Both the position numbers and the translations under genes were made by a program. The notes under the pieces were generated by a model. The model saw only the letters and a list, made by a program, of their open reading frames with translations. It searched no databases and was not told where the DNA came from. Of a stretch of DNA of 64,000 nucleotides, positions 2,735 through 8,133 are shown in pieces (within the stretch, counting starts at the first letter, position 1; each line of letters begins with the position of its first letter). This DNA comes from Anaerolineae bacterium (GTDB lineage Bacteria; Chloroflexota; Anaerolineae; Anaerolineales; E44-bin32). The stretch spans positions 3,642-67,641 of the forward strand of contig BTQZ01000007.1 of the NCBI GenBank assembly GCA_036986135.1, given 5' to 3'.

Positions 2735-4216
2735 GTGACCGTTTTCGAACCAGTCATCGGACTCGAGGTGCACGCAGAGCTGCTTACGCAGTCCAAGATG
2801 TTTTGCAGTTGTGCGGTGGTGGATTCCACCTCAGCCGAGCCCAACAGCTCGGTGTGCGAAATCTGCACCGGAATGCCTGGTACGCTCCCGGTAATCAATC
2901 AGCGAGCCGTGGAATACGCCCTGCGAGTGGCGCTGGCCCTCAACTGCACCATTGCCGAGACCAGCGTCTTCGCCCGCAAGAATTACTTCTACCCCGATCT
3001 GCCCAAGGGCTTTCAGATCTCGCAGTACGAGCTTCCTCTGGCTACGGCCGGTTGGATCGAAATTGAAGACGCTTCAGCGACCCCCACCACCAAACGCGTG
3101 CGCATCCGGCGCGTACACCTGGAGGAAGATACCGGAAAGCTCCTTCATCGTGAGCATCACTCCTTGGTGGACTACAACCGCTCCGGCGTGCCATTGCTTG
3201 AGATCGTGAGCGAGCCCGACCTGCATTCCGTAGATCAGGCTCGGCAGTACTCATTGGCGCTGCGGTCGCTGCTCCGCTACCTGCGAGTCAACAGCGGGGA
3301 TCTGCAAAAGGGCGTGATGCGCTTCGAGGCCAACGTCTCCGTCCGCCCCATCGGCTCCGAGGAGTTGGGGACCCGCACAGAGATCAAGAACCTGAACTCG
3401 TTTCGTGCGCTCAGCCGGTCGATCGAATACGAGATCGATCGGCAGGCGGCGTCGCTGCGGTCGGGCGAGCCAGTAGTACAGAACACAGTAGGATGGGATG
3501 AGGTCCGCCAGGTAACGGTCTCGCAGCGAAGCAAGGAAGAGGCGCATGACTATCGGTATTTCCCCGAGCCGGATCTCCCGCCGCTGCACATCGAAGCGGC
3601 CTGGGTCGATCGGGTCAGATCTGCCTTGCCTGAGCTACCGGCCGCTAAACGCGCGCGGTTTGTAGAAAAGTATGGCTTGAGCGCCTACACCGCCGGGGTG
3701 CTGACCGCTGAGAGGCCGGTCGCAGACTATTACGAGGCGGCCGTCGAATCCGCGCACGAAACTTCGCCGGTCAAAATCGCGAACTGGCTTTCGAGCGATC
3801 TGTTTGGTCTGCTCAACGATGCCGATATTGAGATCGACCAATCGAACGTAACTCCTGAGGCGCTGGCGAGGCTGGTGAGCCTGGTCGAGACCGGCAGGAT
3901 CAGTGCCGCGTCGGGCAAGATAGTGTTGGGAATGCTCTTCAAGCAGGGCGGATCTCCCGAATCGCTCGTTGACGAGCAGGGACTGGCCCAGCTTGAGGAT
4001 CAGGCCTCCATCCGCCCCATCGTCGATCAGGTGTTGTCCGACAACCCCGATCAGGTAGCCGAGTATCTCGCTGGCAAAGCCGCACTGTCGGAGTGGTTCC
4101 TGGGGCGGGTCATACGGGCAACGCAGGGCAAGGCCGACCCGGCTACCGCGCGCGCCGAACTAGATGCAGCGCTTCTTGATCTTGATGATCGTGATCAGAA
4201 TCAATCCAGTAGGTGA
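2735..4216 (+). CDS. gatB: Asp-tRNA(Asn)/Glu-tRNA(Gln) amidotransferase subunit B
   Basis: IGLEVHAEL, RKNYFYPDLPKGFQISQ, HLEEDTGK, EIKNLNSF, YRYFPEPDLPP. Confidence 0.98.
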   Translation: MTVFEPVIGLEVHAELLTQSKMFCSCAVVDSTSAEPNSSVCEICTGMPGTLPVINQRAVEYALRVALALNCTIAETSVFARKNYFYPDLPKGFQISQYELPLATAGWIEIEDASATPTTKRVRIRRVHLEEDTGKLLHREHHSLVDYNRSGVPLLEIVSEPDLHSVDQARQYSLALRSLLRYLRVNSGDLQKGVMRFEANVSVRPIGSEELGTRTEIKNLNSFRALSRSIEYEIDRQAASLRSGEPVVQNTVGWDEVRQVTVSQRSKEEAHDYRYFPEPDLPPLHIEAAWVDRVRSALPELPAAKRARFVEKYGLSAYTAGVLTAERPVADYYEAAVESAHETSPVKIANWLSSDLFGLLNDADIEIDQSNVTPEALARLVSLVETGRISAASGKIVLGMLFKQGGSPESLVDEQGLAQLEDQASIRPIVDQVLSDNPDQVAEYLAGKAALSEWFLGRVIRATQGKADPATARAELDAALLDLDDRDQNQSSR

Positions 4217-4236
4217 CCATCACTACTTGAACCGCG
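4213..4236 (+). repeat. 24-bp direct repeat, left copy (GTGACCATCACTACTTGAACCGCG)
   Basis: Identical to 6690-6713; includes the gatB TGA. Confidence 0.92.
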
Positions 4237-4299
4237 CAGGCCGCGATATATGCTGGTCGCTGGCGACTGGCTGGCACACAAATGGTGTCTTACAGCTGG

Positions 4300-4655
4300 T
4301 CAGTGTTACCTGCGGTGCTCGGCTATCCATCATGGCGCATTCGCACGCACGACCAACCTGGTGGGGCGAGCCTTCGTGGAGCAGAAGAGGCGAACCAAGA
4401 CGTTCCCGCTGTTCTGGATTGAGTCGAGCCGCTTGCCTGTCCTCGCTGACAGCCCAGGGAAGCTGGTCTTCGCGGCCTTGTGGCGGGTCAGTCGGCACCG
4501 GCAGTGGGTGCACATGAGCGAGTTCGAGCAGCACCAACTCCTTTAGCCTCGATCGGAACTCGGGCTGCTACCGCCCATCAGCTCTGGAGATACATTCAAA
4601 TGTGCAGCCTGATACTTCACGGCGCGTTTTTTTGCAGGAGGTTTCGGACTTGGCC
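4300..4655 (+). mobile_element. IS256-family transposase C-terminal relic with probable right terminal inverted repeat
   Basis: Translation RTTNLVGRAFVEQKRRTKTFPLFWIE...KLVFAALWRVS...MSEFEQHQL resembles the IS256 transposase end (RTTN..ER...E.RRRTK); 4630-4655 TTTTGCAGGAGGTTTCGGACTTGGCC resembles an IS256-type end. Confidence 0.7.
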
Positions 4656-4745
4656 CCAGATACTGCCTTCGCTTGAACATTACACGACAACAGAGTATCG
4701 TAAACGAGACTCTTGGGAGCTGATCACTCCGTTAAGATTCACTCG

Positions 4746-4766
4746 CATGTATTGAAGCAATACATG
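4746..4766. promoter_or_regulatory. Perfect 9-3-9 palindrome, candidate operator
   Basis: CATGTATTG-AAG-CAATACATG, 65 nt upstream of the 4832 gene. Confidence 0.5.
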
Positions 4767-4831
4767 ATCTTGAATGCAGGAACTCACGTGATTTACAAAG
4801 CCATCCCAGCAGCCGATCAGGTTATCAAGCC

Positions 4832-5557
4832 GTGACCAATTACAAGTCGATTCTTCAGAAAGCCCTCATTGCACTCAGCTTGGTTGGGCTCCTCGCGTTT
4901 CCATTCTCTGTTGGACCCTATCAATGGGGAATGGCCTTGAATATGGTCGCTCAGGCCCAAGTTGAATTCACACCTGATATTGACGCCCTAGAGATGGCCG
5001 CAACCCCCGAACCACTCCTCCAAGAGAAGCTTGAGCTCCCGGAAGCGTTCGTTGAAGGGAACGTTCTTGTCATTGATGGGAATCCATATCCGATCGGAGA
5101 TGGCTTTTATGATGCTGAAGGGATTCCTCTTGGGCCAAGTGTAACTGACAAGACTGGCCTCTACGGGTATGCTCCCATTCAAACCCTACCTGATCATGTG
5201 TTGATCTGGTATCTGGATGGGACTGGGAAGAAGCAATACCTTGTGACAACGGCGGACGATGAATTACTTACAGGATCCACGGGCTTCGATCAGATGATCA
5301 AGAATCTCCGAGATGCAGAGGATCGACTTATTACCACTGCGGGCGGAGGTGCTGCCGCCCTTGTGACGGCCGCGGTGCTGCAGCTGGCTGTTTGTCCATC
5401 AACCGTCGGGGCAACTTGCGTGACTGGAGTCGTTACATTGATTGTTGCCGCAATTGGTGCAACATTCGCGTCGGCAGCCCGATTGCTCTTTGATATCGTC
5501 CCGGCGATGAACAATGTCGAGAGTGCCTTTGCGACACTCGACCAGAACAGACCATGA
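4832..5557 (+). CDS. Secreted protein with C-terminal Gly/Ala-rich hydrophobic hairpin (candidate membrane-active toxin/bacteriocin)
   Basis: Hydrophobic N-terminal signal ending near AQA; acidic middle; C-terminal AGGGAAALVTAAVLQLAVC-x7-CVTGVVTLIVAAIGA; a decayed paralog lies downstream. Function is inferred. Confidence 0.75.
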   Translation: MTNYKSILQKALIALSLVGLLAFPFSVGPYQWGMALNMVAQAQVEFTPDIDALEMAATPEPLLQEKLELPEAFVEGNVLVIDGNPYPIGDGFYDAEGIPLGPSVTDKTGLYGYAPIQTLPDHVLIWYLDGTGKKQYLVTTADDELLTGSTGFDQMIKNLRDAEDRLITTAGGGAAALVTAAVLQLAVCPSTVGATCVTGVVTLIVAAIGATFASAARLLFDIVPAMNNVESAFATLDQNRP

Positions 5558-5594
5558 CCGGAAGTTAATGTTTGAGCGTAACAGAGGCGTTCTC

Positions 5595-5990
5595 ATGGAA
5601 AAACAAGGACTGCGCGTGAGTGCTCGGTATTCAAAGATTCTTGCCATCTTCAGTGCTTGGGTTGCGTTTGGGGCAGCCGCTGGGCTTGTTACATCAAAAC
5701 AAGCGTTCTTAGGGGCGTTCCTGATTGTCGTCGGGTTAGTCGCGATAGTCCTTGCGGTCGATGGGAGGAGAATGCCGGAGAGAGTACACACGAGGTTGGA
5801 TTTGGTGCTGCAATCGATCATGTTTGGGCTGCCGATAGCTTTCATGATCATGTTGATTGTTGTCCTTGGCGGCAGCCTCCTTCGTCCATTCTTGGGATAT
5901 ATCGTTGCATACCTCACGGGCCTGGTTGTGCTTGCGGCACTGGCTGTCCGTGAACTCCGAAGAGGTGTAAAAGTCGGCGGACTCAACTGA
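5595..5990 (+). CDS. Small 4-TM membrane protein (candidate immunity protein)
   Basis: AGAGG RBS before ATG 5595; four hydrophobic segments; decayed paralog at 6546 starts at the equivalent Met. Confidence 0.75.
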   Translation: MEKQGLRVSARYSKILAIFSAWVAFGAAAGLVTSKQAFLGAFLIVVGLVAIVLAVDGRRMPERVHTRLDLVLQSIMFGLPIAFMIMLIVVLGGSLLRPFLGYIVAYLTGLVVLAALAVRELRRGVKVGGLN

Positions 5991-6035
5991 GCTCGAAGTT
6001 GCTTCGCAGAATAGCCCAGTGCGACTTGGCCGCTG

Positions 6036-6504
6036 CCATGTCCCATCGGTGATGGGTTCCATGATGCCGAAAGGATACGGCTTGGCTCCCATGTACCGGC
6101 AGAACAGCTCTTTACAGTTGCGCACCCATTCAGATTCGACCTGATTATGTATTGATCTGATATCTGGATGGCACCGGAAGGAAGCGATACCTGGTGCCAA
6201 CAGCGGATGCGGAACTACTTACGGGGCCTTCTGGGTTTGATCAAACGAATATCAACTTGAGAGCTGTCGAGGATTGGCTCACGCATGCCATAGGAGTCGG
6301 CGGCACAGGTTAGCCAATGCTGCTATTAACCCAGGTCGCGGGAAGCGCGCCAACCGAAGTTTGTTATGCGTGTCTGCTGTAGTTACAGGTCTGGTTGGAG
6401 CAATAGGAGGAACGATAGCCACGATAGGTGCCGTTGCCGTCGACCTCATTCCTGCGATGAATAACGTAAAGCGCGCATTTGATACGATCGACCCGAATCG
6501 ACCC
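6036..6504 (+). pseudogene. Decayed, N-terminally truncated paralog of the 4832-5557 protein
   Basis: PCPIGDGFHDAE / APIQIRPDYVLI*YLDGTGRKRYLVPTADAELLTGPSGFDQ / DLIPAMNNVKRAFDTIDPNRP align with the intact copy; frameshifts and a TGG>TGA stop. Confidence 0.9.
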
Positions 6505-6545
6505 TATTTGATATCCGATGTAAGAGTCGACGCAAGGGAATTAGT

Positions 6546-6707
6546 ATGGGAAAAGAAGGTCTTCGTCTAAGTGCTTGATATCCGAAGATATTGGCAGCAT
6601 ATGGCGCTTGGATTTCGTTCGGACTGACGATAGGCTTCTTAGCCACAGACCAGTTTATTTGGGGAGGGTTACTGATTGTCGGAGGCGCAGTGACCATCAC
6701 TACTTGA
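6546..6707 (+). pseudogene. Decayed, truncated paralog of the 5595-5990 membrane protein
   Basis: MGKEGLRLSA*YPKILAAYGAWISFGLTIG vs MEKQGLRVSARYSKILAIFSAWVAFGAAAG; similarity ends at the right direct repeat. Confidence 0.88.
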
Positions 6708-6713
6708 ACCGCG
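6690..6713 (+). repeat. 24-bp direct repeat, right copy
   Basis: Identical to 4213-4236; contains TTGAAC, a possible -35 for gdhA. Confidence 0.92.
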
Positions 6714-6749
6714 TGCCCGTGGACGATATATACTATTCGCCTGCAGCAG

Positions 6750-6795
6750 AGTTCTGTCGCGAGCAACCAAGTTCTGTCGCGAGCAACCAAGTTCT
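6750..6795 (+). repeat. Perfect 20-bp tandem duplication (GTTCTGTCGCGAGCAACCAA x2.3)
   Basis: Directly visible in the gdhA leader. Confidence 0.95.
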
Positions 6796-6849
6796 TTCAC
6801 TTGCGACCAATTAGTTTTACCTACGATCCGATAAGGAGATAAATGCTCA

Positions 6850-8133
6850 ATGGCAACCGCAGCAAAGTCCGATATCAAGCTCGAACCATCCCCTAATCCC
6901 TTTGAGGTTGCGCAGCAGCAACTTGACGAGGCTGCCGAGCTCTTGGAACTGGATACTGCAATCCATCATCTGCTGCGCTGGCCGCTGCGCGAACTACACG
7001 TGACGTTGCCGGTGCGGATGGACGACGGAAGCACCAAGATCTTTCATGGCTTCCGTGTGCAGTACAACGACGCGCGCGGCCCCACAAAAGGCGGAATCCG
7101 CTTCCATCCAGACGAAACCATCGATACCGTTCGCGCACTGGCGGCCTGGATGACCTGGAAGACGGCCGTGGTTGATATCCCACTGGGAGGCGGCAAGGGC
7201 GGCGTCATCTGTAACCCCAAAGAAATGTCGGACGGCGAACTCGAGCGACTCAGCCGTGCCTATATCCGGCAGGTGGGCCGAATTCTTGGTCTGGAGAAGG
7301 ACGTTCCCGCGCCCGACGTATACACCACACCTCAAATCATGGCTTGGATGGCCGACGAGTATGCCTTTATGAAGGGATACAACGAGTTCGGAGTGATTAC
7401 CGGCAAGCCTCTGGCGCTCGGCGGTTCAGCGGGGCGAGGCGACGCAACCGCTCGGGGCGGAATTTACTGCTTGAGGGAAGCGGGGAAGGTACTGGATATC
7501 AAGCTGGACGGCGCCACGACCGCAATTCAGGGCTACGGAAATGCAGGTTCCTTTGCCCATAAACTAGGAGTTGAACTCGTGGGCCTGAAGGTGGTTGCGG
7601 TCTCCGACTCCAAGGGCGGGATCTACAGCAAGGATGGCCTAGACTACAACGATGTTTTAGCTCATAAGCAGAAGACCGGCTCCGTCATCGATTTTCCAGG
7701 CACCGAGTCCATTACGAATGAGGCTCTGCTTGAGCTGGATGTGATTGTCTCTATTCCCTCCGCACTTGAGAGTGTCATCACGGACCGCAATGCTGCCGAC
7801 ATCCCCGCAAAGATCATCGTAGAGTTGGCAAACGGCCCCACAACTCCCGAGGCGGATAGGATCCTTTACGAGGCAGGCACCTACGTCATCCCCGACTTCC
7901 TGTGCAACGCGGGCGGTGTGACCGTCTCTTACTTCGAAATGGTGCAGAACGCCTACGGTTACTATTGGACAGAAAAGCTGGTGTACGAGCGCCTTGACGA
8001 GAAGATGACCGCCGCCTTCCACGCCGTGCACAACGCGGCTCAGGAACACAAAGTTCATAATCGCCTGGCCGCGTACCTGGTTGCGGTGAACCGAGTTGCG
8101 GAAGCGGTCAAGCTGCGCGGCTGGGTTTCTTGA
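6850..8133 (+). CDS. gdhA: Glutamate dehydrogenase (Glu/Leu/Phe/Val family)
   Basis: [54 protein letters not shown]; AAGGAG RBS. Confidence 0.96.

Follow-up and report, generated by a model that had tools for sequence, protein, structure and literature searches.

An inserted island in an Anaerolineae bacterium carries a candidate exported membrane-active bacteriocin and a putative cognate membrane immunity protein

The 64,000-nt stretch of Anaerolineae DNA analysed here (the window) contains, between gatB and gdh, two adjacent forward-strand genes that we call A and B. Gene A (4832..5557, forward strand) is an ORF of 241 aa with a GTG start, for which homologues were found. The same frame stays open for 32 codons upstream, none of which is ATG, GTG or TTG, and the homologues begin at the aligned position equivalent to the GTG. 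Gene B (5595..5990, forward strand) encodes 131 aa with four transmembrane (TM) helices and is a putative cognate immunity or partner protein. The stop codon of A ends at 5557 and the ATG of B lies at 5595, leaving a gap of 37 nt, with the sequence AGAGG 8 nt 5′ of the ATG. A longer start for B (ATG at 5514, 158 aa) was rejected; it overlaps A and is unused by homologues. Both ORFs are conserved in other assemblies and are therefore genes, not chance ORFs.

The first ~43 residues of A are signal-like, with two lysines followed by a hydrophobic stretch at about residues 11–27, and alignments show that this succession of basic residues, hydrophobic residues and then proline with small residues is conserved family-wide. 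An acidic linker leads into a β domain (residues ~67–150), which is followed by an amphipathic helix (151–170), a hydrophobic helical hairpin (173–215), and a C-terminal helix that carries an FDxxPAxNNV motif. Residues 44–150 hold 19 Asp and Glu against 4 Lys and Arg, and mature A is strongly acidic throughout (26 against 9). Most membrane-active bacteriocins are not acidic, unlike mature A, and we count this against a bacteriocin function. The tail (171–215) consists to 53% of Gly, Ala and Thr and to 84% of Gly, Ala, Thr, Val, Leu and Ile, and the turn of the hairpin holds the pair C188-x7-C196 (CPSTVGATC), both cysteines of which are invariant in 30 diverse relatives. Summed over 19 residues, the two hairpin arms have values of +4.2 and +0.6 kcal/mol and the helices of B values of −2.5 to +0.4, a comparison that is weak; such marginal hydrophobicity might fit a segment that passes the translocon and inserts later. 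We also considered, and rejected, A as a lipoprotein: the signal region contains a cysteine in many relatives, but this is not conserved, and the residues before it do not fit a lipobox.

B has four hydrophobic segments, with clusters of Lys and Arg at the N-terminus, in the middle loop and at the C-terminus, so that the positive-inside rule predicts an N-in/C-in topology. A single-protein search finds 10 homologues of B and a profile search 29. A complex prediction for the tail of A (residues 145–241, 25-row alignment) with B (19-row alignment) scored 0.00, which speaks neither for nor against binding. The original prediction had described A as a 241-residue protein with a signal-like N-terminus, an acidic middle and a Gly/Ala/Thr-rich tail with a C-x7-C pair, followed 37 nt later by a 131-residue protein with four TM segments; the ORFs and their coordinates, the residue counts and the hydrophobic segments of B bear out each of these features.

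The A-B pair sits on an inserted island of ~2.45 kb between gatB and gdh. A repeat search found a perfect 24-nt direct repeat, GTGACCATCACTACTTGAACCGCG, whose left copy (4213..4236, no strand assigned) is the attL-like core of a duplicated target and overlaps the gatB stop codon (4214–4216). The right copy (6690..6713, likewise without strand) is the attR-like core, after which the chromosomal gatB-gdh spacer follows. Around this identical core the target duplication extends over ~50 nt at 81% identity, and both copies align to a single position in close relatives whose site is empty. In the window, gatB and gdh are 2,633 nt apart; in the three closest relatives (L062, L060 and L055, with GatB 89, 88 and 82% and Gdh 97, 92 and 92% identical to those of the window by tblastn) the distance is ~140 nt and the site holds neither A nor B. 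Among 19 loci from the same order, gdh lies at most 231 nt downstream of gatB in eight, which include both genomes of the same family. The GC content is 0.49–0.54 over 4600–6800 and about 0.60 in the flanks, so the stretch is indeed more AT-rich than its surroundings, as had been noticed; GC3 is 0.51 for A and 0.55 for B, against 0.67–0.72 for five neighbouring genes. No integrase is found on the island, which we count against a bacteriocin function.

The left island segment (4237..4658, no strand assigned) holds no convincing gene, has a GC content of 0.595 and is single-copy in its own genome; its first ~40 nt align, as a diverged copy, with chromosomal sequence on the right-hand side of the core. 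Its ORFs gave no Pfam match above cut-off, and an Rfam scan of 4000–7000 returned nothing. The region directly upstream of A (4659..4831, forward strand) is conserved with locus L005, in a block of 83% DNA identity that runs from 4659 to 6084, and presumably contains the promoter and 5′ leader of an A-B operon. A consensus promoter scan found nothing in 4659..4831, the results for promoters and terminators being at chance level overall.

Downstream of B lie the remains of a second pair. A′ (6036..6504, forward strand) is a decayed, 5′-truncated copy of A equivalent to residues ~85–241, split over several reading frames with one TGA and one TAG as in-frame stops. Its tail (6361–6504) is 83% identical to P0007 and P0012 and only 54% to A, and hence of another allelic type. 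B′ (6546..6701, forward strand) retains ~52 codons from the start of another B, frameshifted and cut off at the right repeat (E 3.6e-12 over residues 1–52, one TGA), and its best match is P0035 at 55%. P0035 and P0007 are each found on a 2,090-nt contig, and from these similarities the tail type and the B type of the remnant point to one foreign pair. The decayed second copy (6036–6701), the 24-nt direct repeats and the nature of the whole stretch as an insertion all go beyond the original prediction.

Comparable arrangements occur elsewhere in the family. Locus L043 has an intact tandem A-B-A-B array, extra B-like genes are present in L007, L011 and L053, and L005 has an orphan A tail between two B-like genes. 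Beside the cassette of L005, an ORF (2522–2818) without a Pfam match may be the start of an IS3-type transposase. Short proteins that consist of the tail only make up 9 of the 60 clusters of the family, with unrelated N-termini in two of the five whose sequences were read. Across six loci, mean identity falls from 73.5% in the β domain to 51% in the tail and 45% in B, and individual pairs are mosaic: P0005 and P0006 are 88% identical in the N-terminus and 43% in the tail, P0007 and P0010 91% and 45%, and P0006 and P0007 48% in the N-terminus, 92% in the β domain and 86% in the tail. Modules are exchanged at a point ahead of or inside the β domain, and every tail is a variant of the same fold. 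Directly visible in these loci is that alleles turn over by recombination inside the conserved 5′ part of A, which displaces older tail-plus-B modules downstream, where they persist as remnants, and gives rise to arrays. Such turnover is typical of toxin-immunity loci.

The close homologues of A number 26, A itself included, and the wider family forms 60 clusters at 50% identity, all found, in the collections searched here, in a single family of the Anaerolineales. In the class sample and in the phylum sample A occurs in 1 of 401 genomes, only the window's own, and the wide A profile has credible matches in 5 of 401 genomes of the order sample, all in the window's family. Weaker matches at the level of the order (G970, G1000 and G1076) were treated as spurious, that in G1076 falling within an ORF of 527 aa that looks like an enzyme and has an Ala/Gly-rich helix, and a 556-aa match, P0095, is a Ca-ATPase false positive. 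No large fusion proteins with an A tail occur among the 60 clusters, the longest credible member having 336 aa, and a search of the close A alignment against genome contigs gave no match.

Downstream DNA of at least ~400 nt is available for 12 A-like genes, and in all 12 a small gene of 127–156 aa with three or four predicted TM segments follows directly 3′ on the same strand (L005, L006, L007, L008, L009, L011, two pairs in L043, L044, L045, L046 and L053; the downstream DNA of L010, L051 and L054 is too short to count). The gaps are 0–41 nt where both ends are clear, the start of the L053 partner being uncertain. A membrane gene adjoins A in all of these, as the original prediction had asked of the homologues, and none was found without one. 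As to the co-diversification that it had also asked about, identity in the tail correlates weakly with identity in B (Spearman 0.34; 15 pairs from 6 loci), which we count against a bacteriocin function.

Neither gene belongs to a family that the libraries recognise, as had been surmised. In Pfam, A and B match no family, the best hit of A being DUF6594 (E 0.19). A search for a match to a known non-toxic family, in Pfam, PADLOC, PHROGs and the PDB sequences, gave none, and the A family profile had no match among PDB sequences at E ≤ 10. In a predicted structure of A, the β domain (67–150) has six strands and a pLDDT of 90.5, residues 151–239 are helical, and the hairpin region reaches only pLDDT 58–76. 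The Foldseek comparison that had been proposed for such models matched no solved fold: whole A had no PDB hit at E ≤ 0.001. With VIA-align against 48,161 chains, the best result was Z 5.7, among generic helical matches, and viral predicted structures gave none. For the β domain alone, Foldseek found nothing and the best VIA result was Z 3.8, to single propeller-blade-like pieces. On the strength of the model, the β domain appears to have a fold absent from the solved structures searched.

The class III bacteriocins of the geobacillin-26 family appear to be the only named family that A resembles, weakly and below the curated cut-off. The NCBIfam profile Geo26A_fam (NF035925) aligns residues 151–234 of A, a match that spans its entire C-terminal helical module, with positions 121–195 of 197 (E 2.2e-4); the score is 21.1 bits, against a cut-off of 40 bits, and the matching region is compositionally biased and hydrophobic. 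The profile also matches 21 of the 26 close relatives (best E 7.2e-6, none reaching the cut-off), one of 36 distant A representatives (P0051, E 7.3e-5) and none of eight A-like sequences from genomes. In a six-frame search of the 2.9-Mb genome A is the top match, with 21.2 bits against 12.3 for the next. Among ESM Atlas feature neighbours of A, the nearest cluster is 'geobacillin-26 family protein' at 0.83, a range that shuffled proteins reach one-third of the time.

Geobacillin 26 (Geo26) and alicyclobacillin 24 (Ali24) are described, in passages of PMC13176240, as Sec-signal proteins of ~240 aa with a C-terminal hydrophobic helix (residues 205–225 of 245 in Geo26 and 198–218 of 238 in Ali24), membrane-associated action and a narrow spectrum. 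A is likewise ~240 aa long, with a Sec-type signal-like N-terminus and its hydrophobic hairpin at 173–215 of 241, near the C-terminus. There are also clear differences. The AlphaFold 3 models of Geo26 and Ali24 show an elongated α-helical central core with some β elements, according to the same text (PMC13176240), whereas the middle of A is a compact six-stranded β domain predicted to have no known fold. The hairpin of A has two arms and an invariant cysteine pair, features that those passages do not mention for Geo26 or Ali24. A gene for a four-TM protein always follows A, while no immunity gene is discussed for either bacteriocin in that paper; the word 'immunity' is absent from the main text of the Ali24 paper (PMC13176240), and the Geo26 family therefore gives no precedent for a B-like partner. 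The host phylum differs too, A being from Chloroflexota and the Geo26 family from Bacillota.

Other systems share parts of this design. In pore-forming colicins the hairpin inserts in the membrane, and a small polytopic immunity protein acts within the membrane. With these and with pyocins, A-B shares a hydrophobic helical hairpin, an adjacent gene for a protein with three or four TM segments and, in the roles proposed for the modules of A-B, a conserved targeting part with exchangeable killing and immunity modules. However, A has no sequence match to the Pfam colicin pore domain, and no colicin chain is among the Foldseek or VIA results for the A model (hairpin pLDDT 58–76). Colicins depend on lysis proteins and outer-membrane translocation and do not leave the cell by Sec, whereas A has a signal-like N-terminus, and the helical module of A has ~90 residues and four helices, compared to the 10-helix bundle of colicins.

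Weak but recurrent matches to α pore-forming toxins of the ClyA family place the hairpin of A on their hydrophobic head region. Among the 26 close members, HblD (Hbl L1) is matched by four (best E 0.0051), MakA by one and NheB by one; in addition, P0066 matches MakA (E 0.0046) and a protein of L050 matches NheB at 239–305 of 398 (E 0.0026). The last two are local to the hairpin and amount to 12–17 bits, compared to cut-offs of 320 (MakA) and 500 (NheB); all these scores fall short of the curated cut-offs by tens to hundreds of bits, and the likeness may be compositional only; A is far smaller than these toxins and lacks their long helical bundle. As in the cdiA-CT/cdiI modules of CDI systems and in Rhs systems, A is conserved at its 5′ end and varies in its 3′ tail, with a putatively cognate small gene behind it, and the A-B loci include 5′-truncated orphan tails that are each followed by an immunity-like gene, arrays, and recombinational module exchange. 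Unlike them, A is small and would leave the cell by Sec, not by contact-dependent delivery, and its tails vary within a single fold. SdpC/SdpI of Bacillus subtilis likewise combines an exported toxin with a multi-TM immunity protein; however, SdpI is larger than B and has a second role in signalling to a repressor, and SdpC and A are unrelated. B scores 14.1 bits against Pfam SdpI (PF13630; E 0.052, gathering threshold 28.2 bits), and the Atlas structure neighbours of B include an SdpI cluster at a TM-score of 0.42; both signals are at noise level.

Taking all of this together, we consider it an evenly balanced proposition that A-B is an exported, membrane-active class III-like bacteriocin with its cognate membrane immunity protein, carried on an island. 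In the mechanism that we infer, of which the anatomy alone is observed, A would be exported by Sec through its N-terminal signal, which would be cleaved on secretion. The conserved acidic β domain (~67–150) would dock on a conserved surface feature of related cells, and the C-terminal module, composed of the amphipathic helix, the cysteine-stapled hairpin rich in Ala, Gly, Thr and Val, and the final amphipathic helix, would insert from outside into the cytoplasmic membrane of the target. There it would dissipate the barrier, as geobacillin 26 and alicyclobacillin 24 are reported to do, and so be toxic. B, almost wholly buried in the membrane of the producer, would neutralise the cognate hairpin there and thereby protect the cell. 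The antagonism module that the original prediction had proposed is supported by strong circumstantial signs, namely the island with its empty site, the displaced remnant of another allelic type, the arrays with extra B genes and orphan tails, the divergence of tail and partner beside a conserved head, the shuffling of modules, and the weak, sub-threshold similarity to one bacteriocin family; the specific analogy to colicins that accompanied it finds no support in sequence or fold matches.

The main rival is a pair of non-toxic membrane proteins, in which A is anchored in the membrane of the producer by an uncleaved N-terminal segment and the C-terminal hairpin, with its β domain displayed outside and B as its partner, serving a lineage-specific envelope function, for example in sensing, adhesion or the filament or sheath. 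We regard this as somewhat unlikely, though it has several observations on its side. On the Kyte-Doolittle scale, both the N-terminal segment and the hairpin's second arm are of TM grade; the latter reaches 2.0–2.1, equal to a real TM helix, and A could therefore simply remain in the producer's membrane. The small-residue cleavage motif is poor in the A of the window, where the sole close candidate site precedes a proline, and no toxin family is matched at cut-off. Deep conservation of the pairing extends over subfamilies whose B proteins are mutually dissimilar: the B profile recognises 2 of 7 distant partner genes, and the other five are alike in size and topology only, which also counts against a bacteriocin. 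The same holds for one A subfamily that occupies a fixed site beside uvrA in three genomes (L046, L053 and L054), which looks like stable vertical inheritance. On the other hand, one would not expect a housekeeping complex to lie on a low-GC island absent from the three closest relatives, or to be accompanied by a decayed, displaced copy of another allelic type, orphan tails and extra B genes. The family is also sparse, occurring in 4 of 48 genomes of its own bacterial family. Finally, conservation is highest in the exposed β domain and variation greatest in the membrane-buried parts, the reverse of the usual selection on surface proteins.

An improbable explanation is that the pair serves another mobile-element function, as a membrane-acting abortive-infection or superinfection-exclusion pair or as a holin-like lysis module and inhibitor, and is what a degraded integrative element left behind. 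The island with its att-like repeats would suit such an origin, and B, which is holin-like in size only, has a weak match to the PADLOC '4TM effector' model (E 0.0092). An ORF neighbouring the pair in L007 matches a holin family below cut-off (E 0.012), and the second-nearest Atlas cluster for A is viral (0.81). Against this, no relative of A was found in 2.9 million viral contigs, among viral predicted structures or in plasmids (tblastn, E ≤ 10), PHROGs gave nothing above noise, PADLOC returned nothing significant, and no phage or conjugation genes are present in any locus read; moreover, Abi effectors are not usually built from a signal peptide and an extracytoplasmic domain. That A and B are non-functional, as chance ORFs or a remnant decaying throughout, is scarcely credible: the second copy in the island is clearly decayed and the GTG start of A has no obvious Shine-Dalgarno sequence, but both ORFs are intact, conservation across many assemblies is far higher in protein than in DNA, the β domain is modelled with a pLDDT of 90.5, and residues are invariant in an alignment at 26% identity.

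Returning to the bacteriocin and its immunity protein, we tentatively suggest a more specific version, in which A-B is a polymorphic bacteriocin system particular to the Anaerolineales. Here, a Sec-exported β head of new fold would serve in targeting and a cysteine-stapled, marginally hydrophobic hairpin in killing, and a family of four-TM proteins would neutralise the hairpin within the membrane. Alleles would spread by recombination in the head and on miniature integrase-less islands with ~50-nt att-like repeats, and the tail would be distantly related to the geobacillin-26 killing domain, as the first such case beyond Bacillota.

Whatever its function, the locus offers a clean natural case of displaced alleles in which occupied and empty sites can be compared side by side. 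Should the pair prove non-toxic, it would still be a conserved, uncharacterised two-gene membrane module of one bacterial family. If the proposed roles are correct, A would represent a new bacteriocin architecture, with a head of unknown fold and a stapled hairpin, and the geobacillin-26 class, whose mechanism and means of self-protection are unclear, would gain a killing module open to testing and a candidate kind of immunity protein; if the tail of A is a relative of the geobacillin-26 killing domain, it would therefore define which part of the class kills. Anaerolineales are filamentous bacteria, abundant in sediments, vents and digesters but rarely cultured. We know of no protein antagonism system described for them, and a full-text search found no literature that joins bacteriocins and immunity proteins with Anaerolineae. 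Killing by A and protection by B, if confirmed, would give the order its first described protein toxin-immunity system.

Gene A is an intact ORF with a GTG start (4832-5557, + strand) that encodes 241 residues, and it is followed after 37 nt by gene B (5595-5990, + strand), an ORF with an ATG start encoding 131 residues. The original prediction described A as having a signal-like N-terminus, an acidic middle, and a hydrophobic C-terminus with a C-x7-C pair, B as a 4-TM protein, and the surrounding stretch as more AT-rich than its flanks, all of which is borne out. At the N-terminus of A, two lysines precede a hydrophobic stretch, residues 44-150 contain 19 D+E vs 4 K+R, and a C-terminal stretch of 45 residues, 84% of them G/A/T/V/L/I, is interrupted by C188-PSTVGAT-C196. 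B has four hydrophobic segments; since its basic residues are concentrated in the central loop and at both termini, these three parts should face the cytoplasm. The GC content drops from ~0.60 to 0.49-0.54 over 4600-6800, and GC3 is 0.51 in A and 0.55 in B vs 0.67-0.72 in five flanking genes. Right behind the signal region, at residues ~43-52, A carries a motif, Q-[IV]-x-F-T-P-x-[IV], that is kept even in distant subfamilies; it lies in a segment that is disordered in the structural model, and it may act as a signal for processing or sorting.

Neither protein matched a Pfam family, and PDB sequences searched with the A profile gave no match at E <= 10. Apart from A itself, 25 close homologues were found, with 44-83% identity (38% for one partial sequence), and among 1.84 billion representatives its profile retrieved 60 clusters at 50% identity, 38 of them with E <= 1e-10; P0095, which is among these clusters, is a false positive (a Ca-ATPase). 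G112, W126, C188, and C196 are invariant in an alignment of 30 A-family sequences with a mean column identity of 26%. For B, a single-protein search found 10 homologues and a profile search 29, all of 101-142 residues, for which the sole source name was "hypothetical protein [Anaerolineales bacterium]". A and B are thus genuine genes of a small family without earlier description. By language-model features, the nearest Atlas clusters of B (scores 0.91-0.92) are unnamed proteins of 127-135 residues, mostly from Acidobacteriota; small 4-TM proteins like B may also occur in phyla that yielded no A-like gene.

The original prediction proposed testing whether the two genes are always adjacent, and their pairing proved deeply conserved. 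Seven metagenome loci encode close relatives, and in all six that have downstream DNA a B homologue lies directly 3′ of A, with an additional B-like gene in two (L007 and L011). A wide A profile found family members in four more genomes, all belonging to the same bacterial family as the window (4 of 48 genomes in that family and 2 of 8 in the genus), whereas the 352 genomes from the rest of the order gave no credible match. Where downstream DNA is available in these genomes, the A-like gene is followed by a gene for 132-156 residues with 3-4 TM segments: locus L043 holds two pairs in tandem (A-B-A-B), L044, L045, and L046 are single A-like loci with a partner, and in L053 the A-like gene precedes two small TM genes in a row. 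Overall, a small membrane gene directly follows the A-like gene in 12/12 evaluable cases, a count that leaves out L010, L051, and L054, whose contigs end too early downstream. Of the distant partners, those in L044 and L045 alone are matched by the B profile, with E about 1e-6; the remainder resemble B solely in size, position, and topology. One A-like subfamily, with a longer Cys-to-Cys hairpin loop, lies directly 3′ of uvrA in L046 (genome G1059), L053 (G918), and L054 (G958), followed, given downstream DNA, by one or two 4-TM genes of 155 residues; unlike the island in the window, this is conserved synteny. In two unrelated assemblies, the same two genes without a Pfam family adjoin the A-like gene (L009 3829-5149, - strand; L051 2-1356, + strand), encoding a lipoprotein-like protein of 212 residues and a Pro-rich membrane-anchored one of 226.

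An AlphaFold2 model of A (26-row alignment, mean pLDDT 73) places an N-terminal helix at residues 4-21, followed by a disordered linker, a beta domain at 72-140, and four helices at 152-170, 174-186, 194-208, and 212-239, of which the second and third are predicted to form the arms of the hydrophobic hairpin, with the Cys pair at the turn. Folded alone (49-row alignment), the beta domain (residues 64-152) reached a pLDDT of 90.5 and a pTM of 0.80. No convincing fold match emerged: among solved structures, Foldseek found nothing resembling the beta domain at E <= 0.001 (best VIA-align Z 3.8), and the whole-A model matched nothing more specific than generic helices (best Z 5.7) and no viral model. 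From these models we can name no known fold for A, although an absent match is no proof of a new one. Rough sums of translocon-scale values, without position weighting, are +4.2 and +0.6 kcal/mol for the hairpin arms and -2.5 to +0.4 kcal/mol for the helices of B, which suggests that the arms are much less membrane-prone; export of A would thereby be allowed. On the Kyte-Doolittle scale, however, the second arm is TM-like.

One named family resembles A, namely Geo26A_fam (NF035925) of geobacillin 26, a class III bacteriocin. The match is weak (E 2.2e-4, 21 bits at a cut-off of 40) and pairs residues 151-234 of A with the last 75 profile positions. It recurs in 21 of 26 close A relatives (best E 7.2e-6), and when all six frames of the genome are searched with the Geo26A_fam model, A ranks top, 9 bits ahead. 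The nearest ESM Atlas cluster of A by features bears the same geobacillin-26 name (score 0.83); the two signals come from different methods, each providing no more than a lead. Counting against the link, however, Geo26A_fam matches a single one of the 36 distant representatives and none of eight A-like sequences from genomes. According to PMC13176240, geobacillin 26 and alicyclobacillin 24 comprise ~240 residues with a Sec-signal, a mostly helical core with some beta elements, and a hydrophobic helix at the C-terminus, have a narrow spectrum, and cause dye uptake, indicating membrane damage; the main text of that paper never mentions "immunity". Scattered weak matches to ClyA-family toxins put the A hairpin on their hydrophobic head, and signals of B to SdpI are at noise level. 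By the families' own criteria A belongs to none of these; it may work like them.

The A-B cassette lies on an island (~4237-6689) between gatB and gdh, bounded by a perfect 24-nt direct repeat whose left copy (4213-4236) overlaps the gatB stop codon and whose right copy spans 6690-6713. In the three closest relatives found (tblastn identities to the window of 82-89% for GatB and 92-97% for Gdh), the two genes are about 140 nt apart and A and B are absent. Among 19 loci of the order, 8 have gdh <= 231 nt downstream of gatB, and both genomes of the same family belong to these 8. Window positions 4101-4260 and 6690-6900 both align onto one ~50-nt stretch of the empty site, and in a five-way alignment the chromosomal spacer continues the right repeat and a diverged version of it the left. 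The arrangement looks like an attL/attR pair after recombination in a 24-nt core; no integrase is encoded on the island, whose left 420 nt occur only once in the genome. In public sequencing run X2, one contig departs from the window at 4236 and continues with letters resembling the right arm of the empty site, and in run X3 flanking contigs end at both repeats with the cassette on a separate contig. Since these contigs derive from mixed communities, they give no more than a hint of occupied and empty sites existing together. Just 5′ of gdh (6737-6776), the spacer holds a 20-nt unit twice in tandem (75% alike), and one X3 contig lacks 20 nt at 6753, so the copy number differs between populations. 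L018 comes from a genome of this order (G776) and encodes a Gdh with 81% identity to that of the window (6850-8133), but its adjacent GatB reaches only 61% (2735-4216), whereas the two identities track each other more closely in other relatives; either a transfer event or a gdh that is unusually well conserved may explain this. A second GatB-like gene with 44% identity lies outside the window elsewhere in the genome (G000, contig C84:447-1868), and many genomes of the order likewise have two GatB matches.

Downstream of B lies a decayed second copy, which, with 66-73% DNA identity to the first, is no recent duplicate. Its A′ part (6036-6504) equals residues ~85-241 of A in several reading frames with in-frame stops, and B′ (6546-6701) retains the first ~52 codons of a B gene. 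The A′ tail is 83% identical to the A homologues P0007 and P0012 and 54% to A, and the closest relative of B′ is P0035, probably the neighbor of P0007, as the contigs of the two are equal in length. L005, whose cassette is 83% identical in DNA to that of the window, carries on the opposite strand an orphan A tail with a B-like gene on either side; by eye, this tail resembles that of P0038. An ORF without a Pfam match that directly follows this cassette and the beginning of the A′ remnant there (L005 2522-2818) may resemble the N-terminus of an IS3-family transposase. Short tail-only proteins make up 9 of the 60 clusters; unrelated N-termini were seen in two of five read, and fragments may account for some of the remainder. 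Averaged over six loci, the beta domain is 73.5% identical, the tail 51%, B 45%, and the signal region 33%. Between individual homologues, P0005/P0006 share 88% in the N-terminal region and 43% in the tail, P0007/P0010 share 91% and 45%, and P0006/P0007 share 92% in the beta domain, 86% in the tail, and 48% in the N-terminal region. These patterns indicate that the exchanged unit is the beta domain plus tail and, by position, also B, in agreement with an A′ remnant that begins within the beta domain.

The most likely mechanism, whose chances we judge to be about even, is that A is an exported membrane-active protein and B its cognate immunity protein. A would be exported and cleaved, its conserved beta domain would dock on a related cell, and the hairpin, stapled by a disulfide of the Cys pair, would be driven into that cell's membrane and damage it, while B would engage the cognate hairpin inside the membrane and so shield the producer. 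The data directly show the anatomy of the two proteins, their pairing, the island, the pattern of turnover, and the weak family link; export, cleavage, the disulfide, targeting, membrane damage, and protection are inferred. A non-toxic envelope pair, which we consider appreciably less probable, would explain the deeply conserved pairing and the uvrA-linked subfamily, but leaves the island, the remnant, and the orphans unexplained and does not account for the exposed domain being the conserved part. A mobile-element function, for example exclusion or lysis, is improbable; viral, plasmid, PHROG, and PADLOC searches gave it no support. Non-functional ORFs are excluded by the conservation data.

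Systems in which a membrane-active toxin is exported, a polytopic protein confers immunity, and evolution proceeds through module displacement are a known kind. As far as our searches reach, what is new is the A family itself with its head domain and Cys-stapled hairpin, possibly a distant tie to the geobacillin-26 class, and the restriction of the A family to one family of the Anaerolineales.
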